In this document: piece after piece, positions 1,577 through 21,816 of the stretch | Layout: each line of letters opens with the position of its first letter | Position numbering within the stretch: position 1 is the stretch's first letter | Source of the DNA: Candidatus Saccharibacteria bacterium RIFCSPHIGHO2_12_FULL_47_17 | GTDB lineage: Bacteria; Patescibacteriota; Saccharimonadia; Saccharimonadales; UBA10212 | Direction of reading: 5' to 3' | NCBI GenBank assembly: GCA_001790575.1 | Contig: MGCV01000001.1 | Coordinates: 7,870 to 31,869 of the forward strand | DNA length: 24,000 bases | Translations under genes and position numbers: made by a program | Notes under the pieces: generated by a model | Databases searched by the model: none | Told to the model about the DNA's origin: nothing | The model's input: only the letters and a program-made list of their open reading frames with translations

Positions 1577-2011
1577 TTAGCCGGTGATTTGGCGCAGGAC
1601 GAAGCGGACCATGATTTGGGCTAGAGCTACAATTATCAAGCCGATGATGGCGTAGAGGATGGTGTTTTTGGCGCTGGTGACGGAGGTGTCGCTACCGCCG
1701 GAAGTTATGTAGCGCAGGCCGCCAATGATAATCATGACTACGGCGACAATGCCGACGATCAACGACAGAGTATTAATAACTCCGCGAATAACTTTGTTAA
1801 ATTTTTCAACGCCTGTATCGCCGGCTGCCTCGCAGTTGCCATCGCTTAGTTTAAGATTAGAGCCAGCACATAGGCCTTCCTGAATGACTTGCGAAGTTTC
1901 TTGTTGGGAAGTATCTTGGGCGCTGGCCGTGGAATTTAAGGCCACAAAGCTAAAGACAGTTAGCACAAAAAAACTGCCAGCTATTAATAAGAATCGTCTA
2001 AAAGCACCCAT
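1577..2011 (-). CDS. VirB2/TrbC-like T4SS pilin paralogue P1
   Basis: 144 aa. Signal peptide MGAFRRFLLIAGSFFVLTVFSFVALNSTASA, a short polar region with a Cys pair, then two hydrophobic helices joined by GGLRYITSGG...SAKNTILYAIIGLIIVALAQ. The C-terminal half aligns at DNA level with P2 and P3. Confidence 0.75.
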   Translation of the reverse strand: MGAFRRFLLIAGSFFVLTVFSFVALNSTASAQDTSQQETSQVIQEGLCAGSNLKLSDGNCEAAGDTGVEKFNKVIRGVINTLSLIVGIVAVVMIIIGGLRYITSGGSDTSVTSAKNTILYAIIGLIIVALAQIMVRFVLRQITG

Positions 2012-2038
2012 GCCTCAAATTATAGGGCATGGGTGCTT
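2002..2038 (-). terminator. Perfect 13-bp hairpin, terminator-like, overlapping the P1 start codon
   Basis: aagcacccatgcc (2002-2014) and ggcatgggtgctt (2026-2038) are exact reverse complements with an 11-nt loop. On the minus strand the stem is followed by TTTTA. The loop reads CTATAATTTGA (contains TATAAT). The 3' arm contains the P1 ATG (2011..2009). Confidence 0.4.
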
Positions 2039-2054
2039 GGGATTCTAGGAAAGT

Positions 2055-2498
2055 CTAGGTAGTACCTTTTAGAACAAACTGGACGACGGCTTGGGCTAAT
2101 GCCACGATGATCAAACCGACGATGGCGTAGAGAATGGTGTTCTTGGCAGCTGTGACACTTTCTTGTTTACCGCCACTGGCCACGTAGCGCAGACCGCCAT
2201 AGATGATCATGATGACAGCCACGATGGCGATTACTGCCGATAGGATGTTGATAACACTCTTGATTTTAGTTCCAAGATTACCTTCTTGGCCGGCTCCAAG
2301 TGTACATGCCTCACCTTTAAGAGTCTTGCCGGTGCCTGCACTAGTTATGACTGCATCCGAACCACATATTAAGCTGCCCTTTATACCTTGCTCAACAGTG
2401 TTGCTTTGGGCGTAGGCTGGGACCGCCAAGGCAACCGGTGCCACTAGAGTTAGTACTGAGGCCAGGACAATTAATTTCTTTTTTATTTTTTGAATCAT
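2055..2498 (-). CDS. VirB2/TrbC-like T4SS pilin paralogue P2
   Basis: Signal peptide ...LVAPVALAVPAYA, a Cys pair, then IAIVAVIMIIYGGLRYVASGGKQESVTAAKNTILYAIVGLIIVALAQ. The track starts at TTG 2504. ATG 2498 is preceded by AAGGA (2509..2505) at 6-nt spacing and is preferred. Confidence 0.75.
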   Translation of the reverse strand: MIQKIKKKLIVLASVLTLVAPVALAVPAYAQSNTVEQGIKGSLICGSDAVITSAGTGKTLKGEACTLGAGQEGNLGTKIKSVINILSAVIAIVAVIMIIYGGLRYVASGGKQESVTAAKNTILYAIVGLIIVALAQAVVQFVLKGTT

Positions 2499-2533
2499 TT
2501 TCAATCCTTTTAAGAATTATTAACTATAAGCAG

Positions 2534-2563
2534 TTTATATCACAACTATACAAGGTTTGGCAA
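2534..2563 (-). promoter_or_regulatory. Candidate promoter for P2
   Basis: The minus strand reads TTGCCA (2563..2558), 18-nt spacer, TATAAA (2539..2534). Motif match only. Confidence 0.25.
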
Positions 2564-2570
2564 TGCATGT

Positions 2571-3068
2571 TCACTGTCCGCCGCCCGTCCTTGGAGCATT
2601 GGCTCCGGTATTCGATGAACTTGTAGAGGAGGTAGCTTCGGTGGCCTCGCGCAGAACAAAGTGGACGATGGCTTGAGCGAGCGCTACTACAATTAAGCCG
2701 ATGATGGCATAAAGGATGGTGTTTTTGGCAGCCGTAACGTTTTCTTGTTTGCCGGCGCTGGCGACGTAGCGGAAGCCGCCTATGACAATCATTATTACGG
2801 CGACGATAGCCACGATAGCCGACAAAACGTTAAGTATCTTTTTAATCGTGGCGCTCAATTTGCTGCCGGATTCGGCAGAAATATCACTGACTTCTTGACC
2901 CGTTACGTCTTGCCCAGCCGCACCGCTGGCACCACACTGAAGAGCTTCCTGGGCGTTGGCTGGCTTATTACAGTCAATCGCAAAAACCTGAGTTGGCGCC
3001 CAAACAGACATCGACATCATAATGACAAGACCAGTTAGGATTCGGGCAATAAGTAACTTCATAACCAT
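2571..3068 (-). CDS. VirB2/TrbC-like T4SS pilin paralogue P3 (with a Ser/Thr/Gly-rich C-terminal tail)
   Basis: 165 aa. Signal peptide, Cys pair (IDC...LQC), then IVAVIMIVIGGFRYVASAGKQENVTAAKNTILYAIIGLIVVALAQ, plus an extra tail EATEATSSTSSSNTGANAPRTGGGQ. Confidence 0.75.
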   Translation of the reverse strand: MVMKLLIARILTGLVIMMSMSVWAPTQVFAIDCNKPANAQEALQCGASGAAGQDVTGQEVSDISAESGSKLSATIKKILNVLSAIVAIVAVIMIVIGGFRYVASAGKQENVTAAKNTILYAIIGLIVVALAQAIVHFVLREATEATSSTSSSNTGANAPRTGGGQ

Positions 3069-3086
3069 AATATTACACGACTCATG

Positions 3087-3524
3087 TTAGCCAATTATCC
3101 TTGTGTTGATGAAAGTCACGATCAGCCAGGCAAAGGCCACGATGACCATGCCGGTTAAGGCGCTGGTAATGATGCTGCGGGCTTGGCGGGCTCGGGTTGG
3201 ACTATCGGTGGCCCGTTGACCGCCAATGCTGCCGCCGGCGGTGACGAAGACATAGCCGCCATAAACAATTAAAATGGTGCCGCCAACCGCCGCTACCAGC
3301 GCAAAGACATTGGCAACCTGTTGGAGTATGCCGTCAGGGCCGGCAATCGGGTTTTGGCCGGAGGCCTTTTGCTCCTGAACCTGTTGACAAGCTGGGCTGC
3401 TTTGGGCCGCGCCGGTTTTGCAGGCATCCTCAAACAAATCTTCGGCGCTAGTTTTTGGAGCGAATATAAAAAATGCAAATAGGCTTAATATAATCAGACT
3501 GAGCAATTTAAATCTGAACATCAT
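3087..3524 (-). CDS. Divergent VirB2-like pilin paralogue P4
   Basis: 145 aa. Signal peptide ...FIFAPKTSA, Cys pair, then two hydrophobic helices (ALVAAVGGTILIVYGGYVFVTAGG ... ALTGMVIVAFAWLIVTFI). ATGA overlap with P5 at 3521-3524. Confidence 0.6.
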   Translation of the reverse strand: MMFRFKLLSLIILSLFAFFIFAPKTSAEDLFEDACKTGAAQSSPACQQVQEQKASGQNPIAGPDGILQQVANVFALVAAVGGTILIVYGGYVFVTAGGSIGGQRATDSPTRARQARSIITSALTGMVIVAFAWLIVTFINTRIIG

Positions 3525-3808
3525 TTGCGGAGTCCTCCGATTATGATATTAACTAACAATGCCGCCGAGGCGACAATGATCAGGCCGATGACCGCATAAA
3601 TCACACTGTTGCGGGCCTTGGCAATGTTTTCGGGATTATCGCGGGCAAAAACTAGGCGCATGCCAGACAGGACTATCCAGACTACTGCGAAAGCACCGAT
3701 GATGGCAAAGGCGATGTTAATTGTAAGTTTTAAAGTATCGTCTTTGGCTTCCGGCAAAGCCCCCCTCTCGACGATTCCCTGAAGTGCAAAAAATATTAAA
3801 CTTTTCAT
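3521..3808 (-). CDS. Minimal VirB2-like two-helix protein P5
   Basis: 95 aa. No Cys region. Two helices: AFAIIGAFAVVWIVLSGMRLVFARDNPENIAKARNSVIYAVIGLIIVASAALLV. ATGA overlaps at both ends (3521-3524 and 3805-3808). Confidence 0.55.
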   Translation of the reverse strand: MKSLIFFALQGIVERGALPEAKDDTLKLTINIAFAIIGAFAVVWIVLSGMRLVFARDNPENIAKARNSVIYAVIGLIIVASAALLVNIIIGGLRK

Positions 3809-4158
3809 CCCATTAGCTCCAGAAAACGCTTAACTCTATTCTTTAGATAACGTTTGCCAGGTCCTGTTTTTAGAAATTTCTCCCTAGCTCTGGCATCAGT
3901 TGAATTTAAACAAGCTTCATAATATATCAATTGATATGGACCGCGCTTGTTGGTGGACCTGGTTTTATTTTCCAGATGTTCGGTTAAGCGTTTTTTTAGG
4001 TCGAACGTGAAACCAGTATAAAAACCTCCGTTGTTCGTATTGCGCAGTACGTAAACGTAACTCATGCTGGAGCTAACGGGATAGACCCCGTTAGAAGTCT
4101 GATTCGCTGTAAGCAAGTCAGAAATTTTTGATAAAAAGTTATTTCTAATCGGGGTCAT
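3805..4158 (-). CDS. GIY-YIG nuclease family protein (small UPF0213/YhbQ-like type) with a 31-aa N-terminal extension
   Basis: YVYVLRN...GFYTGFTFDLKKRLTEH...YQLIYYEAC...ARAREKFLK matches the GIY / YxG / R / E layout of small GIY-YIG proteins. tcat at 3805-3808 and at 4155-4158 gives ATGA stop/start overlaps with the flanking pilin genes. An alternative start is ATG 4065 (MSYVYVL). Confidence 0.85.
   Translation of the reverse strand: MTPIRNNFLSKISDLLTANQTSNGVYPVSSSMSYVYVLRNTNNGGFYTGFTFDLKKRLTEHLENKTRSTNKRGPYQLIYYEACLNSTDARAREKFLKTGPGKRYLKNRVKRFLELMG
4069..4158 (-). repeat. Copy A of an element of about 87 nt (the 5' end of the GIY-YIG ORF), homologous to 14350-14436
   Basis: By my hand alignment, 69 of 87 aligned nt are identical, with one 3-nt gap. 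It contains the hairpin ctaacgggg-ucua-ucccguuag (plus-strand coordinates 4073-4094). Confidence 0.55.
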
Positions 4159-4592
4159 TTGGTTAAGCTATTACCGATAAAGGCTACAAATAGTGTAGCG
4201 GTGAAGGCTATACCTAAGCCAATCAAGGCGTTGTAAATACCCTTCCGAGCCGAGGCGGCTTTCTCCGGATTACCTTGAGCGGCAATGTATTGAATACCGG
4301 CTACCATTATCATTATGACCGCCGCAAAGCCGGCAATCCGCAGCAGCATATCTAAAACCGCCAAGCCAACCGGGAAGACACTGGTAGGAAATGTCACATA
4401 TGGCACACACTGATTAAGTGCGTCAACTTTGAAGGTGTTCATGTATTGCCACCAATGAGGCAGGAAGAAAAAGCTGTTCTCATTAAGCTTGGCAAGTTGG
4501 TCTGCCGTACAAGCTCCGCCGGGCTTGCCAGCAGGTATAGTAGCGGCGAAGAATAAAATCTTATCGATATATAAATAAAGTGCGCTATACAT
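4155..4592 (-). CDS. Divergent VirB2-like pilin paralogue P6
   Basis: 145 aa. Hydrophobic N-terminus, two Cys, then LRIAGFAAVIMIMVAGIQYIAAQGNPEKAASARKGIYNALIGLGIAFTATLFVAF. TAATG overlap with P7 at 4592. Confidence 0.55.
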   Translation of the reverse strand: MYSALYLYIDKILFFAATIPAGKPGGACTADQLAKLNENSFFFLPHWWQYMNTFKVDALNQCVPYVTFPTSVFPVGLAVLDMLLRIAGFAAVIMIMVAGIQYIAAQGNPEKAASARKGIYNALIGLGIAFTATLFVAFIGNSLTK

Positions 4593-5146
4593 TATGGTGT
4601 CTTGCTATTAAATATGCCTCCGGGGATTAACCACTGCAGGAAAGTAAACATCAGAATAAAAACGACAAGGGCAATCAGGGCATTATAGATGCGTTTTTTG
4701 GCAGCTGTTACGGCCTCGGCCTTGTCGCCGGCCATGGAATATTGAATACCGCCAAGAATAATCACGCCAGTTATTACCACTGCCACCAAGCCGCTCAAAA
4801 ATTTAACTATGGTGTTTATACGCTTGATTATAGGGTTGGCTTCGGAAACTGCGTATTGAGCTAAGCAGTCCCTAAATTGTTTTTCTCCTTTGTCAGTAGA
4901 GCGGTCCGTATTCAAACAATCCTTAGGAGTGTTAGCCACACAATCTTTGACTTTTAAGCCTTCCGGGTCTTTTTCAGTATCGACAAATTTTTGGCAAGCC
5001 GGGTAGGTCGTCGCGGACAAAGGTCCTGGATCAGGAGGAATGACCGCTTGTGCGTCTGGAATCAGAACGAGTGAAAAAATAAAGGATAGTACAAATGCCC
5101 AAGCAAGCCCAATTAATTTTTTTTGAATAAGTTTTATTTTTGACAT
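4592..5146 (-). CDS. VirB2-like pilin paralogue P7 (largest; ectodomain with 4 Cys)
   Basis: 184 aa. Signal peptide ...SLVLIPDAQA, a polar region of about 75 aa with four Cys, then LVAVVITGVIILGGIQYSMAGDKAEAVTAAKKRIYNALIALVVFILMF. Confidence 0.65.
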   Translation of the reverse strand: MSKIKLIQKKLIGLAWAFVLSFIFSLVLIPDAQAVIPPDPGPLSATTYPACQKFVDTEKDPEGLKVKDCVANTPKDCLNTDRSTDKGEKQFRDCLAQYAVSEANPIIKRINTIVKFLSGLVAVVITGVIILGGIQYSMAGDKAEAVTAAKKRIYNALIALVVFILMFTFLQWLIPGGIFNSKTP

Positions 5147-5275
5147 AAGAGCGGCTTTCGCTACTTATAAGAAAATATACCATAATCGGGTTCCATAAAC
5201 ACTTTTCCTTTGCGCAAAAACATCTATACAACACTTTACGATTATGCTATATTGCCAGCAGCTTACACAGCCAAA
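5147..5275. promoter_or_regulatory. Divergent control region of the two T4SS-like transcription units, with two outward-facing extended -10 motifs
   Basis: Plus strand: TGcTATATT at 5245-5253, 22 nt before ATG 5276. Minus strand: TGgTATATT at 5182..5174, 27 nt before ATG 5146. Neither leader has a clear Shine-Dalgarno (SD) sequence. The palindrome TTTGCGCAAA lies at about 5209-5218. Confidence 0.3.
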
Positions 5276-8200
5276 ATGAAAAACCTCAGAAAAATCATTC
5301 TAAAGCTTGGTTTATTTATTGGCCTAATCGGCTTTTTGAGTGTTTTCTTGCTTTCCACCAAACAGGCTAATGCAGCAATTGTGCCGTCGGATTTAACCAA
5401 AGGCAGTTATACATTTCAAGACGGCGGCAATATAACGGCTGTTTATCCTAGTGGCACAGTCAAATTTATTGACAATAATCCTTTTGACTCAACTCGTAAC
5501 TTTAAGCCAGATTCTTCCGCTAGCCTATGTAATTCAGAAATAAACATTACCGATAAGGACCTATCAGCTCCGGAGGTGGCAGCTGAAGTAAAGCTTAACT
5601 ATTTAGTAGGGGCTGGTCAGTGTCCTAAAGAAAATCAAGTAGTTATCAATCCTAAAATAGCAACTAATGGCGTAGCCAATAAAACGCTTGGGTGGAATGG
5701 CGCTAATATTGCTACCTTAGCAGGGACTAAAGACCAAAGAACATTTGAGCCGGGTCTTAATGTTGACGAAGTTGACGGCGTTCCCAGCGTCTATATAAGT
5801 CCGGACGGCGATGGCAGCTGCCAAAGTAATGGCGTAGTTAAGTTAACCAGTGCCAGCGAAGGTAAATATTACAAAATCAAGTTCATTGCGTTCGGTGGTG
5901 ATCTGCCTAAGGAAATTGATGGTGTCGTTGAACAGGAAAACTGCACGATTGACCATGTCTATTCAGTTATTCTCAAAGGGACGCCAGATACAAATGCCGG
6001 CGGCGGTCCTAGTGAAACCGGAGCTGGTGGAGGGACGTGCAGCAGTGTTGCTGAATGTCTAAAAGATGAAAGTAGGGGGGATTCATCAGCTTGTGTAGCC
6101 AATAGCAGCACGACTATGGAATGGCTTTTATGTCCGATTATCACGGCCATCAGTAAATTTACTGATGAAATAAATAATTTTGTTGAGGGTCAACTGCATT
6201 TTAGAGTTAATCAGCTTTTGCCGGCCACTGGCCAAGTCAATAAAGCCTGGGTAATAATTAAAAATCTTGTCTCCGGTTTGGTTGTAATACTAATGCTTAT
6301 TATGGTTATATCCCAGGCCATCGGCGGCACGTTTTTTGATGCTTACACGGTTAAAAAAATGTTGCCGCGACTCGTCATAGCTGTCATTGCTATGCAGTTT
6401 TCTTGGGTACTTGGCACCTGGCTGATTGGCTTAGCCAATGATTTGGGCGAGGGCTTGAAGCAAATTATGCTAGCGCCGTTCGGCGGTGGCGGCAATATGG
6501 ACCTACCAAGTATTATGCACCACCTGGACGGCACTTATCCGGCAGTCACTACTGTTGCGATTCTTGGTGTCCTTTTCTTACTCCTACTTACTCCCGCGTC
6601 AACGTTTATTTTACCAATATTTCTTTTCGTCGGACTTGCTATTGGCAGTGCAGTATTGATCGCTTTGGCGACTCTTGTATTTAGAAACATTCTAATTATT
6701 ATGGCGATAATTTTTGCGCCGCTGGCGTTATTACTTTGGGCTACGCCCGGCCAAACCATGCAAAGTTACTGGAAAAAGTATGCCGATAATTTTGCCAAGT
6801 TACTGTTGTTTTTCCCACTTGTGGTGGCTCTGATCTATACCGGACGCATAGCGGCTTGGCTGGCCGGCGGTCTCGGCACACCTAGCCTAATCGAGTACTT
6901 TATAGTTTTGGTAGCCTTTTTTGGCCCATACTTCTTTTTGCCAAAAACCTTCAAATGGGGTGGCGCGATTCTGGCAGGCATCAATCAGGGCATTAATCAA
7001 AACAAACTGCTCAATGCAGCCAAAGGTTTTGGCTACAATCGAATTAAAGCCATGACCGCCGAACGCTCAGGCCGATTAGCCAAAGAATGGAAAGAACCTG
7101 ACAAGTATCTAAGGTCGGGTAGGCGAGAATTTAATACTGGAAAGTGGTGGCAAAAAGGTGGACGCCTTAACCCATTGGCGTTTGCTACGTCCAAAACTGT
7201 TAAGGACGAGCGTGGAAATGTAATCGGAACGACCGGCCGGAGAATGTGGCAACTTCAGGGTCGAAAAATGTATGGCTTGGGTGGTGGCGCTTTCTTTGAA
7301 AAGGGTTTAAGTAACGAAGGTATGCTGCGTCGTGGCGAGGAATTTAAGAAAAGGAAAGATGAAGCCGGCTCTATTAGGGAGCAGCGGAGGAAGGAATTCG
7401 GCCGTGACCGGAAAGATGCGTCATATGCAGACGTACTACTTCCTAATGGTACTCGTAGGAAAATGATTATTCCCAAAGGCACCGGACCGCCAAGTGAAAG
7501 AGGTGCATTGTGGCAAAAAATGAAAGGCCTAAACAGCGTCCACGAACGCCAACAGGAACAGGCTGCTGTAGATCTACTAGATGACCCCGCCTTTCCTATA
7601 AATGCCGAAACCCGTTTGATGATGGATCCGACCGGTGCAGCTGGACGGCATCTAGCAAAGCTAAAGAAACAATACGGACTAAAGGGTGATTACGAAGAGG
7701 GTATAAGCGATCAACCGGGAACAAAAGACTCTCTTCTCATGAACCAGCTGGACCTATTGAAGGCCCGCCACTATCGCCTGCAAGAACTAAATGACAAAGT
7801 CGCCAGCGGCGAAGCCTTGAAAGCCGACGAGCAAGTCGAGCTCAATAATCTCCAAGCACAAGGGCCGTTAAATCGGGAGGAATCTGGGAAGATGCGCGAT
7901 TTGCAGTTTATGTATGACAAAGATGTTAACGGTGGCTTCCGCAAAGCTAACGAGAGAGAAATGACCCGTGGGGAGAGGGCAGCAGTTCAAAAGAACCTTA
8001 AGCTTGCCGAACAAATACCGGGAGGGATAGAACACATCGACGCAGAAATGGATCCAGATAATGTTTTGAACGATCTTAATGCTAGTTTGACTGAAGGGGA
8101 GAAAATTAAGTACACGCCGGTAACAAAACACCCGATGCTGCAGAAGAAACTTGCTGGTACTTCCGAACAAATGATGAAGTTGGCTAACATTGCCCCACAA

Positions 8201-10090: not shown

Positions 10091-10245
10091 GCTCAAGTTG
10101 ATATGATGCGTAAACTGAAGGATACTAACATAAGCGGGGAGCTAGAAGCTGAAAGCCGAAAGCATAATGAAGACTAAGATATGAGAAGAGCGAAAGAAAA
10201 AATTAGAGCTAGGGACTTTAGGCTAGGAACTTTAGGCTAAACATT
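10088..10245. repeat. Longest period-7 AAGC-type spacer (about 22 units), including a 14-nt x2 tandem
   Basis: ...gggagct agaagct gaaagcc gaaagca taatgaa gactaag atatgag aagagcg aaagaaa aaattag agctagg gacttta ggctagg aacttta ggctaaa cattATG. Confidence 0.5.
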
Positions 10246-11103
10246 ATGGCTGTATACAAAGTACTCCAAGATATCGAGGCTGAGGATAAGCTGGTTGGGC
10301 CGTTGACGCTTAAAGGCTTTATTTATGCGGCGGCGGCTGGAGTTTTGGCCTTTATTAATTTTAAGCTGCTTATTACAACCGGCGGTTCATTCAAGTGGTT
10401 GCTGATTCTACTTTTCTTGCCACCAATGGTTTTATTTGGGGTTTTGGCCTCACCGCTCGGCCGACAGCAGCCGACTGAAGTTTGGCTGTTAGCACGCATC
10501 CGCTTTCTACTTAAACCGCGCAATCGTCTGTGGGATCAGACCGGCATCAGCAAGCTAGTGACAATAACTGCGCCCAAAAAAGTTGAGCAGCCCCGCACCA
10601 AAGGCTTAAGCGAACCAGAGGTTCGCAGCCGTTTGCAGACTTTGGCGGTAACTTTGGACAGTCGTGGCTGGGCGATTAAAAATTTGTCTTTGCCGGTATC
10701 CAGTCAACGAGATGATTCGGACAGATTAATAGTACCGACGACTACTTCGGCGGTGGCGGCAACGGTTGATATTGACCCATCAGACGACATTTTGGATGAG
10801 AAAAACAATCCGACTGCTCAGAATTTTGCCGCGCTGATGGAGCAGGCGGATGCGGCCCGCAAGTTGAATGTGGCCAATGAACTAACTCAAGCTCGACAAA
10901 CAGCCGCCAACCCCGCCCTTTCTCAAAAAGAGCGGGACGCGAGGCCTCCGGCACAAGAGGTGACAGGTAAAGACCGAGCTGATAAACTGGAGCTAGCCCA
11001 AAGCGGTAGTGCTTTGAGTGTGGCCACGGTTGCCAAATTGGCCAACCGAACGAGTATTCAGCAGCTCGGTCCGAACGAAGTGCTGATCTCACTCCACGCT
11101 TAA
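10246..11103 (+). CDS. PrgI-family / VirB3-like T4SS membrane protein with a hydrophilic C-terminal half
   Basis: The N-terminus MAVYKVLQDIEAEDKLVGPLTLKGFIYAAAAGVLAFINF... is followed by a second helix and by PTEVWLLARIRFLLKPRNRLW. This is the pattern I associate with PrgI-family (VirB3-like) proteins of Gram-positive-type T4SS. Its position directly upstream of virB4 is typical. Confidence 0.6.
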   Translation: MAVYKVLQDIEAEDKLVGPLTLKGFIYAAAAGVLAFINFKLLITTGGSFKWLLILLFLPPMVLFGVLASPLGRQQPTEVWLLARIRFLLKPRNRLWDQTGISKLVTITAPKKVEQPRTKGLSEPEVRSRLQTLAVTLDSRGWAIKNLSLPVSSQRDDSDRLIVPTTTSAVAATVDIDPSDDILDEKNNPTAQNFAALMEQADAARKLNVANELTQARQTAANPALSQKERDARPPAQEVTGKDRADKLELAQSGSALSVATVAKLANRTSIQQLGPNEVLISLHA

Positions 11104-11160
11104 CCCTCCGAAATTTTTACCAAAATTTTGGCGGGTCAAGACCGCGAAAAAGGGTGGAAA

Positions 11161-11244: not shown

Positions 11245-11254
11245 CCGGTCATTC

Positions 11255-11296: not shown

Positions 11297-11302
11297 TGGT
11301 CT

Positions 11303-12196: not shown

Positions 12197-12200
12197 GGCG

Positions 12201-12300: not shown

Positions 12301-12317
12301 TTAGGAGGTACCTCCAA

Positions 12318-14339: not shown

Positions 14340-14349
14340 GAAACTCAAC

Positions 14350-14436
14350 TATGGCCACGATTAGAAATAGCTTTCTAGCGAAAACTTCTGACATGCTAGC
14401 GTGTCAGATTTCTAACGTGGCCTATCCCGTTAGACC
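14350..14436 (+). repeat. Copy B of the GIY-YIG 5'-region element. It forms the first 29 codons of an unannotated 41-codon ORF (14350-14475)
   Basis: MATIRNSFLAKTSDMLACQISNVAYPV... versus MTPIRNNFLSKISDLLTANQTSNGVYPV... at the GIY-YIG N-terminus. The hairpin tctaacg-(tggcctatcc)-cgttaga at 14410-14433 is conserved with copy A. No GIY-YIG domain follows. Confidence 0.5.
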
Positions 14437-14481
14437 TAAGATTTTTACTAAAATCTGCCGCAGAGCGGAGGTCTAATCGGG

Positions 14482-17400
14482 ATGGCTCTCGCAAACCAAG
14501 CGCCGCTTAATCAATCAGCCAACCCGGAAGGTTCTGAACCGGGTGAAGTTGAAATTAGAATAAGACGGACGCGGCGACTAAGACGTCAGCCGCCAGGCCG
14601 TGCCGGACCTGGTACCACACCGGAAACCGCAGGTACATTGAATATAGGCCAGCCAAAGACATCAGCCAGCGGCGTGCCAAGTCCCGGCCCCGGAGAGCAA
14701 GATGCAGGTCTTACGCTTATCGAAGGAGGCGGTGAAGGTGGCGGACCGGCTAGTTCCCGGGAAAATATCACGGGTCTACCCTCAGCAATTGGCCAAACCC
14801 AGCCAGTACCAACGCAGGGCCGAGGCGCAGGGCTCAGGGGCATTACAGGCGGCGGTGAGGGCGGACCGCCGAGCCCTCGGGAAAACTTTTCGGTTGCTCC
14901 GACAATTGGCCAATCTGCCGGCCGGCGCGGTCCAACTTCTGGTGCACAGTTAACCAAAGGACCGGAAAGTCAATTGCCCAAACGACGACTTTCAGCCGTC
15001 CCTACGCCAACCCCCAGACCAAGCCCGGAGGACATCCAGCGTATGGAGAGGGGTGGTGATCAGACTGTGTCCGAAGCGCCAAATTATGTTCCACAAACTG
15101 CTAGCCCTGGCGGACAAACGCCAGGTGAGCAACAAAGTCCTGGCGGTGTAATCCTGCCACAGGAAAGACGCACTAAAGCGCCCGAAGAGTCGGAGCCGGT
15201 TGATGTCGAAAAATCTCCCTATGACCAGCCGGGTATACCGGATATTGTACCTGATGAGGAATCGTCGCCCGGTGAAGAACCCAATCCCGCCGCTGCCCAG
15301 CCGTCTTTTATGGACAGATTTAGACCCAGCAAGAGAGACAAGGGCGCTCCGGATCGCGATGAGCTAGCCGACAAGGAAAAGGGCGGGCTCGGCCAAGAAA
15401 AAGCCGGAGATACTCCAACAGATCAAGAAAAGGACAAACTCGGCCGAGGCTACAATCCAAGTGCCGAACCTGAAAGTAAATCCCGCTTCCGAAACCTACT
15501 TAGTACCCGTCGCCGAAAGGTAATAGCCGGCGGCGGAGTTGTGGGCACAATCATCGGCCTCTTTTTCGGCTTCTCGGTTCTACAGGGACCATTACAATTC
15601 ATTCATTTTGCTCAGCTGCTACGGGGATTTCATATGACCAGTCAAGAAGACGCCGGCGATGGCCGGGTAGGCAGATTTTATCGCTTTGTTCGATCTGGCG
15701 GTGATTTTGGTGAAACCCGTGTAAGTTGGCTGGGCAGTAAATATAAGAACAAAATATTTGCCGATTTTGAAAGAATCGGTTTAAAGCCAGAGTTTGGCGG
15801 TTTTAAAACCTTCAGTGGTTTTACAATTGACCGTAAAAATCCAAATTCCCCTTACAGAAATCTTAATAACGCTGAAGTTGAAGCCAAATTAATAGAAAAA
15901 GGTATTGCTAAGGAAAGTATCAGCTTTAGAGGTAATGAAGTTTTTGTCGATGCCGAAAAGGGCTATTTCAAACAAACACGTGCCTTGCGAGCAATGATCA
16001 GCGAATTAGGTTATGGCACAATCAGCTCAGCCATCAGGGCAAGGCCACTGCAAAAATATGGTCTGGTGACGTGGCACCCCTTAAAACTTTTGGATAAGAA
16101 ATTAAATAAAACTGTGGCCGAGGCATACGAAAAATGGCGGATAGCTCGTGAAGAGCGTTTTAGAACTGGGATTCGCGATCCGAGCGTTGACGGCAAAAAT
16201 GCACAGATTGATGAGGGAGAAACGGATGAGGACGGCAATAAAAAATACAGGCCCATTCCAGAAGAAACTAAGCTCGAACCAAGCAAGACCCGTGAAATTT
16301 TGGGCAAAATCAAAAGCAGCGGCTACACTAAAGGAGCGGCCGGCATAGCCGGTGCGACTGGGGTTGTCTGCATTATTAGGGATGTCAACAATAATGTTGG
16401 TCTAATCCGCAAAGAGAATATTATCGATCCCCTGACCCGTATTGGCATGGATGCCTTAACTATCGGTCAGCAGTTGATGAGCGGCGTAGATATAGACCAA
16501 GAAACATTAAGCTTCGCGGCCAAAAAATTTAACGGCAAAAGCACAAAAGGAAAGTGGGCCGGCGTTGGTGGCGCGGCAGATGTAAGGGCAACTTCCGCTT
16601 TTGAGGCTGCCAGTATCCAAGCCGAGTCAGGACAAAAGCAGACCGGTCTGGATATTGATGAGGGTATAAAGGAAAACATCTCTGGCCCTTCGCCCGGTTT
16701 TCTAAGCTGGGCTGATGATTCATTCAAAGAATTATGTAGTACAGTCGGATTAGTAGTTGTTGGAGCTATCAGCGCAGTAATTGGCGTCCTTAGCGGCAAC
16801 ACGGTCAACACAGCTTTCGGTATAGCCGCTAGCGCCCTTGCCTTACCCTTTGTAATCGATAAAGTGTCCGATTTTATAGCTGGTCAAAGTGTGAATGTGG
16901 CGGCTGTTGGTGCGGAATTTGGTAACTACGCCAATTACGGCGTAAGACTGGCCGGCAATAGCATGGCTTTGATGACAGGCGGATCCGCACTTAGTAAGGA
17001 GGAAGAACTTGCCCTTAAAGAGGATCTGCACCAGAAACGCCTGGCCGAATTTCAATCACAGAGTCTAGCCTATCGGCTTTTTAATCTATATGACCCGGAC
17101 GCTGCTATCTCCAAATTGATCGATCGAACTCCGGCCGATTTCTCACAAAAATTGGCAAGCTTAGGTAGCTCATTTATTAATAGCGCTAGGTCCGTACTCA
17201 AGATCGGGGATCTTTTCTCGGCTAAAGCCATGGCCGCAGAAGATACCGATTATGATTATGGTTTTCCAAAATACGGTTTTAGCAAAGAAGACCTAGAAGA
17301 TGCGAGGTTCGCAGATCCTTACGGAAACGCCGAAGGTGCTGCCCAGATTCTAAATAATGATAGCGCCAGCGGAGGAACATATATTAGCAGAGCCAAAAGG

Positions 17401-18939
17401 TGCTTTGGTGTCGAAATCAAAAAATTACCAGAAGCCGAAGCTGATAATAAAGAGCTTTGGAATGTTATACCGGCTGATGTAGCGGCTAATCCATACGACC
17501 CCAAGAACTATCCAAAAGATGAATGCGCCAGCCGAGAGCTGGACTGGCTAAGAATCAGGTTCTTCATATTCGACACTGGGGTGGTCGAGGGCTGGGCTTG
17601 TTACAACGACGACGAAACCTCCTGCAAAAACAGCGGTGTTGATGAATTGGCGACTTCTTCCACAACAACCAGTTCTGTTGCTACAACTATTGATAGTCTT
17701 GGCGGTCAACAGCTTGCTCCTAATCCACAACGCTGGATTCAATGGATAGCTCAGAACGTCGTGCCGAATCTGCCGGGTAATGCCGACGAAAAGGCTGCCA
17801 TGGCGGCTACGGTAACCTGGTGGTCGCTTAAAGAAGCCGACTTGGACGTCGACAATCCCTTAAGTTATTCCAACTGTGGCGATACCAGCCACTCTAACAA
17901 TTGTCCCGCTAACACACTATGGCAGGTTGGTATTGCCGGTGTGCAGGTACCGAAAGATCCCGGTGCAACCGAAATTAAATCCTTAGAAGATAAAGCGCTA
18001 TCGCTGCACCCCGGCCAAACGATTGAGCAAATTCTAGGTCAAGTTGCCCAAAACGCCGGCTATTTGGCTGGTTCAAATGAATACAGTAGTGTCATAAACT
18101 CTACCGGCCGTACCAGAGCTTCCTGGCTGCTGCGTGATCCGGTCACCGGTTTCGTTACTGTACGACCAGCAATTGAACCCTGCCTAACTGAAGAAGGGCG
18201 GAATAAATTAAAGGCTGCCGGCGATGACTGGTGCCGGGGGTATGGCTCGGCAGCTCATGTGGCTAAAGATGTCGATACAACTTTAAGTGTGATTGGCGAA
18301 TTAAAGGCCTACTTTAAAGGCTCAAGTGCAACTGCCATTGGTGATCAAAACGGCGATTCTGCTTCAATAGCCTGTGCGCCTGGGTCGATCGAGGTGCTGA
18401 CTGAATATACAGCTTATGTAAACGGCACCCCTCGAAAAGTAAGATTGTGTAAAGTTCTTACTATCCCTTGCGATAATGAAGAATGTAGCGGTGGTTATGG
18501 TATTCCGCTTGGCCCGGGTAAATACGCCATCGTTAATTCGCAAGTTTCGGCTGCTTGGGCGGCTGTTGGCGAAAAAGCCAAAAAGGATGGGGTTTCATTA
18601 TCTACTAACAGTAGCCTACGTACCTACGAACATCAGGGTGAACTATGTCGAACTAAAACGAAATATACTGTTGGCGAGAATGGCAGGTGTATCTCTGGTA
18701 ATTCTGGTTTAGTAGCCAGTCAAGGTTATTCACCACACGAAAGCGGTACAGCTATGGATTTGAACATCCCTCACAATACAGGCACGGCGAATAGTTGCTC
18801 GGGCCGAGCGACTGCGGTTGGCGATCCGGTCTGGGAATGGATGAAAAATAACGCTCCGGCTTACGGTATTTTGCAATATAGCGGTGAAAACTGGCACTGG
18901 GATACCAACCCGGCCGGCCTTAATAACAGGTGTTCATAG
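14482..18939 (+). CDS. Giant membrane-anchored protein: disordered N-terminus of about 345 aa, TM helix, large ectodomain, C-terminal M15/VanY-type (LAS) peptidoglycan peptidase domain
   Basis: GGAGG lies about 10 nt upstream. The N-terminus is Pro/Gly/Glu-rich with an internal repeat of about 41 aa. TM helix VIAGGGVVGTIIGLFFGFSVL at about aa 346-367. A second hydrophobic stretch lies near aa 750-800. The C-terminus LRTYEHQGELC...SQGYSPHESGTAMDLNI...VWEWMKNNAPAYGILQYSGENWHWD matches the VanY/M15 SxHxxGxAxD ... ExxH layout. Confidence 0.65.
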   Translation: MALANQAPLNQSANPEGSEPGEVEIRIRRTRRLRRQPPGRAGPGTTPETAGTLNIGQPKTSASGVPSPGPGEQDAGLTLIEGGGEGGGPASSRENITGLPSAIGQTQPVPTQGRGAGLRGITGGGEGGPPSPRENFSVAPTIGQSAGRRGPTSGAQLTKGPESQLPKRRLSAVPTPTPRPSPEDIQRMERGGDQTVSEAPNYVPQTASPGGQTPGEQQSPGGVILPQERRTKAPEESEPVDVEKSPYDQPGIPDIVPDEESSPGEEPNPAAAQPSFMDRFRPSKRDKGAPDRDELADKEKGGLGQEKAGDTPTDQEKDKLGRGYNPSAEPESKSRFRNLLSTRRRKVIAGGGVVGTIIGLFFGFSVLQGPLQFIHFAQLLRGFHMTSQEDAGDGRVGRFYRFVRSGGDFGETRVSWLGSKYKNKIFADFERIGLKPEFGGFKTFSGFTIDRKNPNSPYRNLNNAEVEAKLIEKGIAKESISFRGNEVFVDAEKGYFKQTRALRAMISELGYGTISSAIRARPLQKYGLVTWHPLKLLDKKLNKTVAEAYEKWRIAREERFRTGIRDPSVDGKNAQIDEGETDEDGNKKYRPIPEETKLEPSKTREILGKIKSSGYTKGAAGIAGATGVVCIIRDVNNNVGLIRKENIIDPLTRIGMDALTIGQQLMSGVDIDQETLSFAAKKFNGKSTKGKWAGVGGAADVRATSAFEAASIQAESGQKQTGLDIDEGIKENISGPSPGFLSWADDSFKELCSTVGLVVVGAISAVIGVLSGNTVNTAFGIAASALALPFVIDKVSDFIAGQSVNVAAVGAEFGNYANYGVRLAGNSMALMTGGSALSKEEELALKEDLHQKRLAEFQSQSLAYRLFNLYDPDAAISKLIDRTPADFSQKLASLGSSFINSARSVLKIGDLFSAKAMAAEDTDYDYGFPKYGFSKEDLEDARFADPYGNAEGAAQILNNDSASGGTYISRAKRCFGVEIKKLPEAEADNKELWNVIPADVAANPYDPKNYPKDECASRELDWLRIRFFIFDTGVVEGWACYNDDETSCKNSGVDELATSSTTTSSVATTIDSLGGQQLAPNPQRWIQWIAQNVVPNLPGNADEKAAMAATVTWWSLKEADLDVDNPLSYSNCGDTSHSNNCPANTLWQVGIAGVQVPKDPGATEIKSLEDKALSLHPGQTIEQILGQVAQNAGYLAGSNEYSSVINSTGRTRASWLLRDPVTGFVTVRPAIEPCLTEEGRNKLKAAGDDWCRGYGSAAHVAKDVDTTLSVIGELKAYFKGSSATAIGDQNGDSASIACAPGSIEVLTEYTAYVNGTPRKVRLCKVLTIPCDNEECSGGYGIPLGPGKYAIVNSQVSAAWAAVGEKAKKDGVSLSTNSSLRTYEHQGELCRTKTKYTVGENGRCISGNSGLVASQGYSPHESGTAMDLNIPHNTGTANSCSGRATAVGDPVWEWMKNNAPAYGILQYSGENWHWDTNPAGLNNRCS

Positions 18940-20246
18940 TGATTAAGTATTTGCTTACCGCCGCCTTTTTCTTGACAGTAATAACACTGTTTCCAGCAAA
19001 GGTTGTTGCTCTATCAGCTCAACAAAAAACTATTTTTGATTCCGGTATCTACTATTTTGATACTGAAACCAGCGATACAACCAGTTGCTCGGTTTTAAGT
19101 TCAGCGAATTCCAGCGGCAGTCTATCAACCAACGTACCAGCCGTTTGGCGAAACTTAATTCTTGAGACGGCACCGAAGTATCCGGATGTCGACCCGCGGA
19201 TAGTTGCAGCAGTTTTGTGGGTAGAAAACCGTGGTTGGCCGGAGTATAAAACAAGTGGCTGGGGTGTATCGTCTGCTGGCGCTAAAGGCCCCTGGCAATT
19301 TATTGATAGTACCTGGGTAAGTCTTGGTACTGATGGTGACGGCGATGGTAGCAAAGATCCAGAAAATCCAAAGGATGCAGTTCATGCAGCTTTCAAACAT
19401 AACATAGGTTCGGCCGGCAAGCCGATCGCTACGGAAGGGTACACCGGCAACGCTGAAGCTGATTTTAATACCGTAGTTCTGCATCGCAATAATTCAAATC
19501 TGCTGGCCTTTGCTGCCAAATATAACGGTAGTGGTGCGCCAGACGGCGTAAAGCTTAAAGACTTTTCAAGAAATCAAAACTCTGATTACGTAATTATGGC
19601 TTATTGGATACTGGCAACAGACTTTAGCAAGGGCTTTAATGCAGATTCCCAGCAATTTGTAGATGCCAAAACAAGCGGCAAGGCTAATCAATCTACCGCA
19701 AGTATAAGCTCCTGCCCGGCTGGCAGCGGTATTGTCAGCACAGACGGCTATTCTTTCCCAGTAGCCCCGCAACGTAAGAGCCAAAACGGTGGCGTACCTA
19801 GTATGTCGCCGCTACCATGTGCCGACCCAACCAAGTGTCACCACGATTTTGTCCCACCGTCGAGTCACGCCTTTGATATTTCCCGTCAACCCGGTGGGGA
19901 TAGCGTAGTTGGTACGCCTGTTTATGCAATATCTGATGGCACAATCGCTAAACTTTCGCCGAGCTATCAAGGTATTGTCGGCTGTCAACACTTGCAGCTG
20001 GAAAGCAAGGATGGCTATCGTTATTGGTATGGTCATATTCAAAAAGTTTCAGTTAAAGAAAACGAGCCAGTTTCGGCCGGCCAACAGATTGCTGTGGTTG
20101 GTGAACGTAAGTGTGCCGAAAAAAGTGATCCACACCTTCATATTGACCGCGGCTCACCTAAGGGAGTCAATGGCGGCAGCCCTGAGAGCCGCGACGCTGG
20201 AATTGTGCCATTAATTAATTCATTGTTCGAAAGCCTACCGGATTAA
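18930..20246 (+). CDS. Secreted bifunctional cell-wall hydrolase: lytic transglycosylase (SLT-like) N-domain + peptidase M23 C-domain (VirB1-type role)
   Basis: GTG start at 18930, or GTG at 18939 overlapping the upstream TAG. Signal peptide. SLT-like AAVLWVENRGW...GPWQFIDSTW...AAKYNGSG. M23 motifs SSHAFDIS...GTPVYAISDGTI...YWYGHI...GQQIAVVG...PHLHID. Confidence 0.7.
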   Translation: MFIVIKYLLTAAFFLTVITLFPAKVVALSAQQKTIFDSGIYYFDTETSDTTSCSVLSSANSSGSLSTNVPAVWRNLILETAPKYPDVDPRIVAAVLWVENRGWPEYKTSGWGVSSAGAKGPWQFIDSTWVSLGTDGDGDGSKDPENPKDAVHAAFKHNIGSAGKPIATEGYTGNAEADFNTVVLHRNNSNLLAFAAKYNGSGAPDGVKLKDFSRNQNSDYVIMAYWILATDFSKGFNADSQQFVDAKTSGKANQSTASISSCPAGSGIVSTDGYSFPVAPQRKSQNGGVPSMSPLPCADPTKCHHDFVPPSSHAFDISRQPGGDSVVGTPVYAISDGTIAKLSPSYQGIVGCQHLQLESKDGYRYWYGHIQKVSVKENEPVSAGQQIAVVGERKCAEKSDPHLHIDRGSPKGVNGGSPESRDAGIVPLINSLFESLPD

Positions 20247-20250
20247 CGTT

Positions 20251-21816
20251 ATGAAATTAAGCATCCTTCTAAGATACAAAAACCTTATTCTGGCCCTGGT
20301 CCTAATACTAGGTTCGATCATCCTAATTAATAACTTCTTACTGACGAGTACTTTAAAAGTCGAGGTTAGCAAGGCCGTATCAGATCAAAAAATAACCCTC
20401 AGACTAAACGACTTAAATGGCAAAACTGTTGCAACTAAAGAGCTAAATAAGAAAAAAGCTGCCAATTTTCGCTTGCCAATCGGTAGTTTTAGCGTCTCGG
20501 CGATCCAAGATGATAGCGAAACTATCGGTCAGGCAAAAACAGTCCGCTTCAAATCGTCTGAACTAAAACTCGATTTGGAGCCACAACGAGCCGTCAGCAA
20601 AATCGGCAGCGAAAGTTTGGGCTGTGACATAGTTGTTAACAACATCTTGTATAGCTACGCTTGCGCTAAGGAGAGCTTCATTCTAAGACACGATAGGCCC
20701 GGGCAATTCGTTAATCCCACGCCGATATTGTCAAGCATATTCCAACTGCCTATAACCAGTTCCTCGCCAAACGGCCTATTAGCAAAGCTTCAGCCTGAGG
20801 ATGCAGCCCCAAGCCTAAATATTATTGATTTAGCAAATGATAGTACCTCTCCAATTTATACCCGAGAAGGGCTGGACATTAGTTCATCGCTAATAGTTAC
20901 TGATGTAGCCAATGCGTCCTCAAATCAACGTTTTCTGGCTATCGATCAAAACGGCGCGATTTATAGCTACCAAAATATTCAAGATAAAAATCCCAAAAAA
21001 ATTGAGCTACCTGATAACAAAAATTTAAAGGCATCAATTGATCTTCTGGCCAAAGACTACAGTTTATTTAATAACAAATTTTTGGTTTATGTTGGTAAAA
21101 CCGAATCGCTAGGTGATAATCCGGAAGCTATAAAAGCGCAATCAGCGATTGAAAGAGGCTTCTTATATATTGCCGACCTTGGTCATTCTAAACCAGAATT
21201 TAAAATAATTGAGTCGCCAAAAGAGGTCAGTAACAACGATATTCAACTTATTGATGACTCCAATTTGGCGCTGTTAAAAAACGGCGGGCTGTATGTGTAC
21301 AGGCTTGACAATAACAAGGTAGATCTTAAGGCTCACTTTACTGGTACTAATCAGGTCGTAGTTAGAAACGGCGGCACTGCCTGGTTTATCAGAAACAATG
21401 GTGTCTATAAATATAATGTAGAAACAAATCAAGCAATTAAGGTTTTTCAGTCGACTCATCTCAAGCCTTCGCAAGTCTTTACCATAGGCGATCAAGTCAG
21501 CTTCAATGCATTTATAGAAAATGACGAATCAAATGTACTTCACAGTTACCTAATCAGCGATAGTGCTGCAATAAAACCTCGACTAGAGGATAAACTACCA
21601 TATACCAGTAAAAGTGGGTTGTCCATTCTTAAAATGGATTACTCCGATAGTCAAATTTGGGTGCAGCTGGCATTAACTTCATTAGCGACAGATAAAGAAA
21701 CACGGCGTGTGTCATATGAACAAACTGAGTTCGATGCCGCCAAACAGAAAGTCTTGGAGCGTTTAAAGGTGGATGGTTTTGATCTCAATAAATATCAAGT
21801 TTTCTTCACTAACTAA
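20251..21816 (+). CDS. Hypothetical single-pass membrane-anchored protein, low GC, probably beta-rich ectodomain
   Basis: 521 aa. N-terminal anchor LILALVLILGSIILINNFLL. No motif I recognise. Last gene of the rightward unit. Its stop is 7 nt from the convergent recF stop. Confidence 0.5.
   Translation: MKLSILLRYKNLILALVLILGSIILINNFLLTSTLKVEVSKAVSDQKITLRLNDLNGKTVATKELNKKKAANFRLPIGSFSVSAIQDDSETIGQAKTVRFKSSELKLDLEPQRAVSKIGSESLGCDIVVNNILYSYACAKESFILRHDRPGQFVNPTPILSSIFQLPITSSSPNGLLAKLQPEDAAPSLNIIDLANDSTSPIYTREGLDISSSLIVTDVANASSNQRFLAIDQNGAIYSYQNIQDKNPKKIELPDNKNLKASIDLLAKDYSLFNNKFLVYVGKTESLGDNPEAIKAQSAIERGFLYIADLGHSKPEFKIIESPKEVSNNDIQLIDDSNLALLKNGGLYVYRLDNNKVDLKAHFTGTNQVVVRNGGTAWFIRNNGVYKYNVETNQAIKVFQSTHLKPSQVFTIGDQVSFNAFIENDESNVLHSYLISDSAAIKPRLEDKLPYTSKSGLSILKMDYSDSQIWVQLALTSLATDKETRRVSYEQTEFDAAKQKVLERLKVDGFDLNKYQVFFTN

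Follow-up and report, generated by a model that had tools for sequence, protein, structure and literature searches.

A probable orthologue of the type IV secretion system that Saccharibacteria encode on the chromosome beside the replication origin, with seven pilin-like genes

We report that a 24,000-nucleotide stretch of DNA from Candidatus Saccharibacteria bacterium RIFCSPHIGHO2_12_FULL_47_17 (contig MGCV01000001.1 of GenBank assembly GCA_001790575.1, positions 7,870 to 31,869 of the forward strand; referred to as the window, whose own numbering is used throughout) carries, between positions 1577 and 21816, a set of type IV secretion system (T4SS) genes. This locus is probably the orthologue, in a lineage from Rifle groundwater, of the chromosomal T4SS located next to the replication origin in Saccharibacteria (Saccharimonadia). 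The locus class is already known, having been described in the literature and being essential in a cultivated relative, and the window provides another orthologue of it. Our data cover its gene content, its fixed position and synteny, and the strong conservation of its VirB4 ATPase, and the essentiality of the system is known from published work on Southlakia epibionticum ML1. Taken together, synteny, essentiality in ML1 and the lack of genes for a type IV coupling protein (T4CP), a relaxase or an integrase nearby agree with the proposal, made in a sequence-only reading of the window, of a domesticated, probably non-conjugative machine derived from a T4SS.

Specifically, the open reading frame (ORF) map shows two gene blocks that diverge from positions 5147-5275, the same layout as in the sequence-only reading. 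The minus strand (1577-5146) has eight tightly packed small ORFs, seven with the PF18895 (T4SS_pilin) domain and one with a GIY-YIG domain, and the plus strand (5210-21816) encodes, in this order, a TrbL/VirB6-like protein, a PrgI/VirB3-like protein, a TrsD-like protein, VirB4, a 1485-aa protein with a VanY domain, a hydrolase with SLT and M23 domains, and a 521-aa protein; all ORFs of the locus are intact. On the right, recF and dnaN (21824-23992; Pfam) are followed by dnaA, rpmH, rnpA, yidC, jag and then glycosyltransferase genes, and on the left hsp20 is followed, just outside the window, by a comFC-like phosphoribosyltransferase (PRTase) gene. The housekeeping flanks named from the sequence alone, comF and hsp20 on one side and recF-dnaN near the presumed origin on the other, were thus recovered, with dnaA beyond them. 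The 10 kb beyond each end of the window were read from identical contigs of independent assemblies, so that approximately 44 kb of the genome was covered in total.

The arrangement is the one known from published Patescibacteria systems. A survey of 2,474 Patescibacteria virB4 loci (Quinonero-Coronel 2025, Microb Genom; PMC12102498) defined a distinct clade related to the mating-pair formation (MPF) class MPF-FATA, with TrsD, PrgI, VirB6 and VirB2-like pilins in arrays of 2-11, which are abundant in Saccharimonadia; its loci lie near dnaA/dnaN, and relaxases are rare (present in only 103 Patescibacteria genomes). By sequence similarity the window has the VirB4 of this clade, the same gene order, a divergent PF18895 array and, near oriC, no adjacent T4CP or relaxase gene. 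Moreover, the gene order of SEML1_0003-0021 in ML1, with the T4SS cluster at SEML1_0006-0019, matches that of the window, and transposon sequencing (Tn-seq) of this organism showed that the T4SS genes, including the pilin array, are essential in host co-culture (Wang 2023, Cell; PMC10633639); essentiality for epibiotic growth is known for ML1 only. The traits listed in the survey and the gene-for-gene match to the ML1 cluster bear out the earlier suspicion that the cluster class is not new. According to a 2025 T4SS review (PMC12857230), the system is of the monoderm kind, is essential and might form conjugative pili, and a 2024 perspective, which raises nucleotide import, calls the role of the Saccharibacteria T4SS 'completely unknown'.

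To compare the locus across species we used VirB4 (GenBank KKU20143.1, from a Candidatus Saccharibacteria metagenome-assembled genome, MAG), for which a database search returned more than 8000 matching proteins at E<1e-20. The 120 top-ranked matches are 77-91% identical, and those of them that carry an organism name are all labelled Saccharimonadales, Saccharibacteria or Patescibacteria group. A scan with one genome per GTDB species gave 568 genomes with a VirB4 relative, and the 80 Saccharibacteria loci from species-level genomes that were best by VirB4 similarity were mapped gene by gene using phmmer. The sequence-only reading had suggested a comparison of synteny across Patescibacteria MAGs, and in the 80 related loci, where the contig is long enough, the order is the same: hsp20 > pilins < VirB6 > PrgI > TrsD > VirB4 >, continuing downstream with a giant VanY/M23 protein, a hydrolase and variable small exported proteins up to > recF < dnaN <. 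The number of pilin genes per array ranges between 4 and 9 with a mode of 6.

In these 80 genomes the median identity to the window protein is 82% for VirB4, a value that is somewhat inflated as the loci were ranked by VirB4 similarity, 72% for Hsp20, 59% for TrsD, 58% for DnaN, 52% for RecF, 47% for PrgI, 31-50% for the pilins and 27% for the VanY giant. Since VirB4 reaches 82% and DnaN 58% in the same genomes, the VirB4 motor is under stronger constraint than the replication clamp, and the surface parts evolve fast. These data support that the locus is a vertically inherited, fixed and housekeeping-like chromosomal machine beside oriC.

The VirB4 ATPase (12318-14339, plus strand; 673 aa) lacks the N-terminal domain of its family: it passed the NCBIfam model NF045971 for CD1110-type VirB4 (357.7 bits, cut-off 325; 1.2e-106) over model positions 183-732 only, and it matched PF19044 (1.8e-26). 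Its Walker A (AKSGAGKS, residues 262-269, positions 13101-13124) and Walker B (LLIVDEAW, residues 484-491, positions 13767-13790) motifs were both located. The TrsD-like protein upstream of it (11303-12196, plus strand; 297 aa from ATG 11303, or 324 aa from TTG 11222) matched NCBIfam TrsD (1.5e-6), positions 2-121 of the CD1110 VirB4 model and positions 100-234 of VirB4_plasma, carries PF26593 (TraC-like) in the precomputed annotation, and is present in 77 of the 80 related loci. Because VirB4 covers positions 183-732 only and the TrsD-like protein covers the start of the model, VirB4 is split into two proteins, and we predict from these matches that the TrsD-like protein is the equivalent of a detached VirB4 N-terminal domain. 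The PrgI/VirB3-like membrane protein (10246-11103, plus strand; 285 aa) has PF12666 over residues 5-95 (9.6e-8; 32.9 bits, cut-off 27), two transmembrane (TM) helices and a C-terminal extension of approximately 190 residues. Profile searches therefore uphold three assignments of the sequence-only reading: the PrgI/VirB3-like protein, for which PF12666 is above the cut-off, the VirB4-N-domain-like protein, which matches TrsD and the N-terminal ~120 positions of VirB4 models, and the VirB4 ATPase with its two motifs.

Between trsD and virB4 lies a simple-repeat spacer (12197-12317) with about eight TCAATG-type heptamers followed by an AGGAGG ribosome-binding site before virB4 (TRF, sequence). 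The two genes abut without a spacer in most relatives, and about 12 relatives (among them loci L092, L061, L013, L083 and L085) have inserts of 90-170 nt at this junction composed of unrelated short tandem repeats, in many cases with the inverted complement of these repeats behind them. A 43-aa ORF that gene callers place at 12193-12324 was rejected as a gene, given that it sits in this spacer, which is missing from most relatives. Similar simple repeats are present just upstream of prgI (10203-10239) and downstream of the first pilin gene (1534-1573).

The giant protein at the start of the plus-strand block (5210-10090; 1626 aa) was classified as TrbL/VirB6-like on the basis of PF19590 (TrbL_3) in the precomputed Pfam annotation of identical public contigs, the presence of PF19590 in five of six homologues, an hhalign match to TrbL-like proteins of monoderm plasmids (88% probability, E 3e-6, in a conserved helix-Pro-Trp region) and a TM scan. 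Its signal/TM segment is followed by a Cys-rich extracytoplasmic domain of approximately 270 residues, a polytopic TM core at residues 303-627 (positions 6116-7090; TM scan) and a hydrophilic tail of approximately 1000 residues. In the public gene calls, as in the longest ORF, the gene begins at TTG 5210; however, because a canonical signal peptide (MKNLRKIILKLG...) begins at ATG 5276, the latter is the likelier start. In the divergent intergenic region (5147-5275; ORF map) between the pilin and machinery operons one promoter-like site was predicted (5225-5253, plus strand), although promoter and terminator scans of the window were overall not above shuffled expectation; an Rfam search of the window gave no family.

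All seven small minus-strand proteins scored above the PF18895 gathering cut-off of 26.6 bits (30.1-54.8 bits; Pfam), so that the VirB2-like pilin assignment holds in a profile hidden Markov model (HMM) check; PF04956 (TrbC/VirB2) was above its cut-off for the 1577-2011 protein only, and the NCBIfam Mbov_0395 pilin-like conjugal transfer model gave sub-threshold matches to two of the pilins. The sequence-only reading had described seven proteins with a signal peptide and two helices. In a crude hydropathy scan the two strongly hydrophobic C-terminal helices were present in all seven, but a signal-like N-terminal segment was clear in five and not evident in the 3521-3808 and 4155-4592 proteins. 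That reading was right in its count of the pilins but its text had omitted the GIY-YIG ORF (3805-4158) inside the block. Six of the seven have at least one Cys pair in the exposed N-terminal part, and pairwise identity among the seven is 26-46%.

Numbered from the distal end (all on the minus strand), pilin 1 (1577-2011; 144 aa) is a canonical VirB2/TrbC-like protein with a signal peptide, a Cys pair and two TM helices (PF18895 5e-14; PF04956 7.8e-7; Mbov_0395 1.3e-7) and is 42-46% identical to pilins 2 and 3. Pilin 2 (2055-2504; 149 aa; PF18895 1.5e-11), which shares the DNA repeat family D1 with pilins 1 and 3, and pilin 3 (2571-3068; 165 aa; PF18895 1e-14), which has a Ser/Thr-rich C-terminal tail, are canonical-type paralogues; the best match of pilin 3 is the last-position pilin in the six-gene arrays of relatives, and the three distal genes are paralogues, 42-46% identical, of this canonical last-position pilin. 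Pilin 4 (3087-3524; 145 aa; PF18895 5.2e-7, 30.1 bits) is divergent, occupies the fourth position counted from VirB6 and has its best match at position 4 in 26 of 35 arrays. The short pilin 5 (3521-3808; 95 aa; PF18895 1e-13), at position 3, has no obvious signal peptide. Closest to VirB6 are pilin 6 (4155-4592; 145 aa; PF18895 3.7e-10), at position 2, and pilin 7 (4592-5146; 184 aa; PF18895 8.3e-10), at position 1 and adjoining the VirB6 gene, with a long N-terminal extracellular region and four Cys. For 34 of the 35 complete arrays the best match of pilin 6 is at position 2 and that of pilin 7 at position 1, and both matches are reciprocal in all 25 six-gene arrays; by position, the two pilins nearest to VirB6 are orthologous from species to species. 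Pilin 6 appears to be a specialised, positionally conserved pilin-like protein. As positions 1 and 2 are conserved and the six ML1 pilin genes are individually essential, the data favour an array of specialised subunits over simple antigenic redundancy.

The GIY-YIG nuclease-domain ORF (3805-4158, minus strand; 117 aa; PF01541 7e-14) lies between pilins 5 and 6 and overlaps each by 4 nt. It is present in none of the 80 related loci, and a second copy, 43% identical, was found approximately 2 kb left of hsp20 (7960-8325 in contig extract L010). It is probably a passenger in the operon and not a component of the T4SS, and it resembles a small selfish or mobile gene.

Downstream of virB4, Pfam found all three peptidoglycan-hydrolase domains (M15, SLT and M23) that had been assigned to two proteins from the sequence alone. 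The 1485-aa envelope protein (14482-18939, plus strand) has a disordered N-terminus rich in Pro, Gly, Glu and Ser, TM segments, a large Cys-rich extracytoplasmic region (TM and Cys map) and, at its C-terminal end, a VanY/M15 peptidase domain (PF02557, 1.1e-10; residues 1351-1471, positions 18532-18894); relatives have at this position giant proteins ending in VanY or M23. The secreted hydrolase (18930-20246, plus strand; 438 aa) combines a lytic transglycosylase domain (SLT/SLT_2; residues 83-156; PF13406 1.2e-6, PF01464 6e-4) with an M23 endopeptidase domain (residues 327-405; PF01551 1.8e-15); ENA calls start it at ATG 18939 (435 aa), and one NCBI contig, like the longest-ORF list, uses GTG 18930 (438 aa). 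With M15, SLT and M23 domains together, the locus resembles Gram-positive T4SSs, which have multi-domain hydrolases.

The block ends with the gene for a 521-aa protein (20251-21816, plus strand) for which no family match was found in Pfam. An AlphaFold2 (AF2) model based on an alignment of 59 sequences (predicted local distance difference test, pLDDT, 94.3; predicted TM-score, pTM, 0.91) confidently predicts a TM helix, a beta-sandwich, a beta-propeller and a small C-terminal alpha/beta domain, i.e. a membrane-anchored, extracytoplasmic beta-propeller protein, and a Foldseek search of this model against the PDB gave generic propellers only (BamB, LGI1 and WD40 proteins). The family is fast-evolving, with 323 representatives at 50% clustering, and has two invariant Cys (C125 and C138). 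Approximately 20 of 64 related loci have a member, and for 17 of these members the stop codon is less than 400 nt from recF.

With respect to DNA transfer, neither the window nor the 10 kb beyond each of its ends showed a T4CP, relaxase or integrase gene (Pfam, precomputed annotation). Within the window no VirB8, VirB9, VirB10 or VirB11 domain (Pfam) and no tRNA gene was detected; flanking direct (att-like) repeats were also absent, the only real repeat family reflecting the paralogy of pilins 1-3. Related loci have no second conserved Walker-A ATPase besides DnaA, and Walker-A matches in the giant proteins of relatives were rejected as an extra ATPase as they are sporadic and not conserved within clusters. 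Of the features that mark a conjugative MPF-FATA system, the locus has a CD1110-like VirB4 and, beside it, PrgI/VirB3, a TrbL/VirB6-like protein and a cell-wall hydrolase, but a VirD4/TcpA coupling ATPase, a relaxase or oriT and a mobile-element context are missing from the window and the adjacent 10 kb; within this span the system is probably non-conjugative. The sequence-only reading had seen no DNA-transfer module, integrase, tRNA or att-like boundary and had pointed out that VirD4, a relaxase and an integrase or repeats just outside the window would make the locus an ordinary integrative and conjugative element (ICE); they were looked for and none was found within 10 kb. An ICE was thus rejected, there being no integrase, att repeats or tRNA, and the position on the chromosome being fixed in 80 genomes rather than patchy.

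Plasmid relatives provide some insight into where the pilins might come from. The nearest plasmid-borne VirB4s are 28-40% identical to that of the window, and in the Embleya, Pontibacillus and Bacillus plasmid loci PF18895 pilin genes adjoin, on the upstream side, the TrbL/PrgI/TrsD/VirB4 genes (extracts L094 7541-8071, L093 7483-8395 and L095 10599-10952). These pilins were identified using an HMM of the seven window pilins; a tblastn search of the plasmids with pilin 1 gave no match. On the Embleya sp. plasmid (NZ_CP108778) the pilin ORF is unannotated (72 bits) and VirD4 and a relaxase-like gene follow directly after VirB4, and on the Bacillus sp. BS98 plasmid (NZ_CP043833) the gene is annotated 'pilin' (32 bits) and VirD4 follows directly after VirB4; the two loci served as positive control for the detection of VirD4 beside VirB4. 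The statement in the sequence-only reading that monoderm systems normally lack VirB2 pilins does not hold here, the closest monoderm relatives carrying PF18895 genes. Because the nearest Firmicute and Actinobacterial plasmid T4SSs also have PF18895, the pilin was probably ancestral, i.e. already present in the monoderm ancestor, rather than added in Patescibacteria, and the locus looks like a plasmid-type module minus T4CP and relaxase plus pilin amplification, not like a monoderm core with a borrowed diderm pilin. We tentatively suggest, as a possibility that we hold less likely than its opposite, that CD1110-type T4SSs of Firmicutes and Actinobacteria generally have the genes for a VirB2-like pilus or a channel lined with pilins, and may assemble it, and that Saccharibacteria turned it into a differentiated filament (two invariant VirB6-proximal subunits, a leaderless short pilin and amplified major pilins) which acts as an essential conduit to the host, possibly for import. 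If true, pilin-bearing CD1110-type T4SSs would contradict the textbook statement that Gram-positive T4SSs are pilin-less.

The machine probably descends from a conjugation apparatus of monoderms (MPF-FATA, CD1110-type) in which a VirB2-like pilin gene was already present; the coupling ATPase and the relaxase were then probably lost, the pilin gene multiplied to seven and the locus fixed beside oriC. How it might work we infer by homology to VirB/Trb systems. Sec would insert the pilins into the membrane as two-helix hairpins, and a VirB4 hexamer, to which the separate TrsD-like protein adds the N-domain and which PrgI/VirB3 tethers to the VirB6-like platform, would extract them, driven by ATP, and polymerise a conjugative-type pilus or channel. 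The VirB6-proximal pilin-like pair may be initiating or tip subunits and the canonical distal paralogues the major subunits, with the M15, SLT and M23 hydrolases opening a local passage through the peptidoglycan. The resulting structure would contact the host bacterium and move proteins or other macromolecules.

Four other explanations were weighed. That the locus is left over from an integrated conjugative element, decaying and with no current function, has next to no chance of being correct: the DNA-processing genes are absent and a selfish-looking GIY-YIG ORF sits inside the pilin array, but all ORFs are intact, the same order is present in 80 species-level genomes, no integrase, att site or tRNA was seen, orthologues are essential in ML1, and the conservation of VirB4, with its 82% identity above that of housekeeping genes, effectively refutes it. 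Working conjugation, with DNA exported by means of a coupling protein, relaxase and oriT located elsewhere in the genome, would fit the membership of VirB4 in the conjugative family NF045971, the closest plasmid relatives being conjugative-type modules with VirD4, and the T4CP homologues far from virB4 in many Patescibacteria (PMC12102498). We nevertheless consider it quite improbable, given that T4CP and relaxase genes are missing from the region analysed and none is conserved in the 80 relatives, that relaxases are as rare as the survey reports (PMC12102498), that the T4CP homologue of ML1 is not essential whereas its T4SS genes are, and that a growth-essential conjugation system more conserved than DnaN would be unprecedented.

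An uptake machine for DNA or other nucleic acids, like Helicobacter ComB or archaeal Ced, that feeds nucleotides to a cell unable to make them is an unlikely explanation as well, albeit one raised in the literature, and a 2026 preprint ties VirB4 to 'macromolecule transfer' in an RNA-feeding parasite. ComB- and Ced-type importers have no relaxase, and here, as in ML1, a comFC-like gene is found two genes away from the pilins; however, deletion of comEC in S. epibionticum ends competence while viability is kept, so that the essential role of the T4SS is independent of ComEC, and neither an import substrate nor a DNA-binding component is identifiable in the locus. VirB4 also shows weak similarity to CedB (2.3e-15) and CedD (1.3e-4), far below the cut-off (NCBIfam), but this is generic P-loop similarity. 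A pilus that is adhesive only, attaching to the host without translocation, would be in keeping with a fast-evolving pilin array (31-50% identity), a surface beta-propeller protein in the block, PEGA and Ig-like proteins in the blocks of relatives and the lack of a coupling ATPase to recruit substrates. Yet Saccharibacteria already attach by type IV pili, secretion does occur in T4SSs that have no T4CP, such as Ptl and Brucella VirB (PMC12102498), and the cytoplasmic tail of the giant VirB6 together with the strict conservation of VirB4 suggests more than filament assembly; adhesion alone is very unlikely indeed.

Several observations weigh against our preferred reading of a domesticated, non-conjugative T4SS, in addition to the ranking of the loci mentioned above. 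The search for T4CP and relaxase covers approximately 44 kb of the genome and distant copies are possible; T4CP homologues do occur in many Patescibacteria genomes, and there only far from virB4 (PMC12102498). No VirB8-like or VirB5-like component was identified. The VirB6 label, which the sequence-only reading had given and which the profile data sustain, is the weakest of the assignments, being predicted from precomputed Pfam and one profile match of 48 columns. Local Pfam and NCBIfam searches with the whole 1626-aa protein and its parts gave no match, a negative that is uninformative given that the local library also misses homologues with precomputed PF19590; the VirB6 TM alignment, searched as a profile against the PDB, returned noise only, and an AF2 model of the TM core from seven sequences was unusable (pLDDT 49). 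Finally, a pilus made of PF18895 proteins is putative in any Patescibacterium, and the tubular structures seen at the Patescibacteria-host interface in a 2026 preprint are only suggested to be T4SS pili.

As to the surroundings, the start of hsp20 that matches public records is ATG 659, not a TTG, and further left, beyond comFC, are the second GIY-YIG gene, YkuD and EamA genes and several genes for hypothetical proteins. The gene adjoining the pilin block (1153-1497, minus strand) encodes a '23S rRNA intervening sequence protein' (PF05635, 4.7e-34) that is also present in five related loci (L051, L061, L065, L069 and L089) at other intergenic places, such as the recF/dnaN gap, beside hsp20 and the prgI/trsD gap (L089); the scattered positions suggest a small mobile gene. 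In the 1485-aa protein the first ~340 residues (14482-15500) are of low complexity and hold an internal duplication of approximately 25 residues (GGGEGGGPASSRENITGLPSAIGQTQ / GGGEGGPPSPRENFSVAPTIGQSAG). Contig LCLR01000003.1 (GCA_001002185.1) is 100% identical to the window over positions 1-15087 and then continues, without Ns, into unrelated genes; the switch point (window 15087; 12770 in contig extract L002) falls in this low-complexity N-terminus, where the assembly break coincides with a local GC peak (0.55). The continuation of the window past 15087 is backed by three independent ENA assemblies, and this MAG contig is probably chimeric at that point.

The system is conserved across the sampled Saccharibacteria, lies at the replication origin and is essential on the host in one tested species, and its cargo, direction and filament are among the main questions of Patescibacteria biology, as already posed in the literature. 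To these we add a VirB4 conserved above the replication proteins, positional orthology among pilins, a beta-propeller model and the presence of PF18895 in plasmid T4SSs.

Compared with known systems, the locus resembles the Gram-negative VirB/Trb type (MPF-T) in having two-helix VirB2-type pilins, VirB3, VirB4, VirB6 and a VirB1-like lytic transglycosylase, and differs from it in the lack of VirB5, VirB7-10 and VirB11, the split VirB4, the monoderm envelope and the multiple differentiated pilin paralogues. With the CD1110/CD1115-type conjugative T4SSs of monoderm plasmids it shares the VirB4 family, the PF18895 pilin, the TrbL-like protein, PrgI, the TrsD-like region and a cell-wall hydrolase (M23 or NlpC/P60 on the plasmids), whereas those loci have VirD4 after VirB4, relaxase-like or ArdC genes, a plasmid context and one pilin gene only, without giant extensions. 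The locus on the Pontibacillus sp. ALD_SL1 megaplasmid (NZ_CP062975, 351-361 kb) is similar in its pilins, a TrbL-like protein of 779 aa, a small PrgI/TraL-like protein, a TrsD-like protein (8e-32), a CD1110 VirB4 (36% identity), a 1050-aa M23 protein and the absence of any T4CP or relaxase annotated within 12 kb; it differs in belonging to a Firmicute, in its place on a non-mobilizable 898-kb replicon beside flagellar genes and in having two pilins only.

The chromosomal cluster of S. epibionticum ML1 has, in the order seen here, dnaA-dnaN-recF, two small exported proteins, a hydrolase, a giant DD-peptidase protein and VirB4, followed by a 293-aa protein, PrgI, a TrbL/VirB6-like giant, the PF18895 array, hsp20 and comF, and neither has an adjacent T4CP or relaxase gene. 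The counterpart of the 1485-aa protein is SEML1_0007 (1113 aa, annotated as Hedgehog/DD-peptidase). The two differ in the number of pilins (seven, with the GIY-YIG ORF between them, against six in ML1), in the VirB6 region (one protein of 1626 aa against two giants, 0011 and 0013, which flank 0012 and of which one is annotated as TrbL/VirB6), in the hydrolase domains (SLT and M23 against lysozyme-like and Cys-peptidase) and in the genes before recF (the 521-aa beta-propeller protein against the PEGA/prealbumin-like 0004 and 0005). In comparison with the Patescibacteria-clade T4SS as surveyed (PMC12102498), nothing essential differs from the locus in the window.

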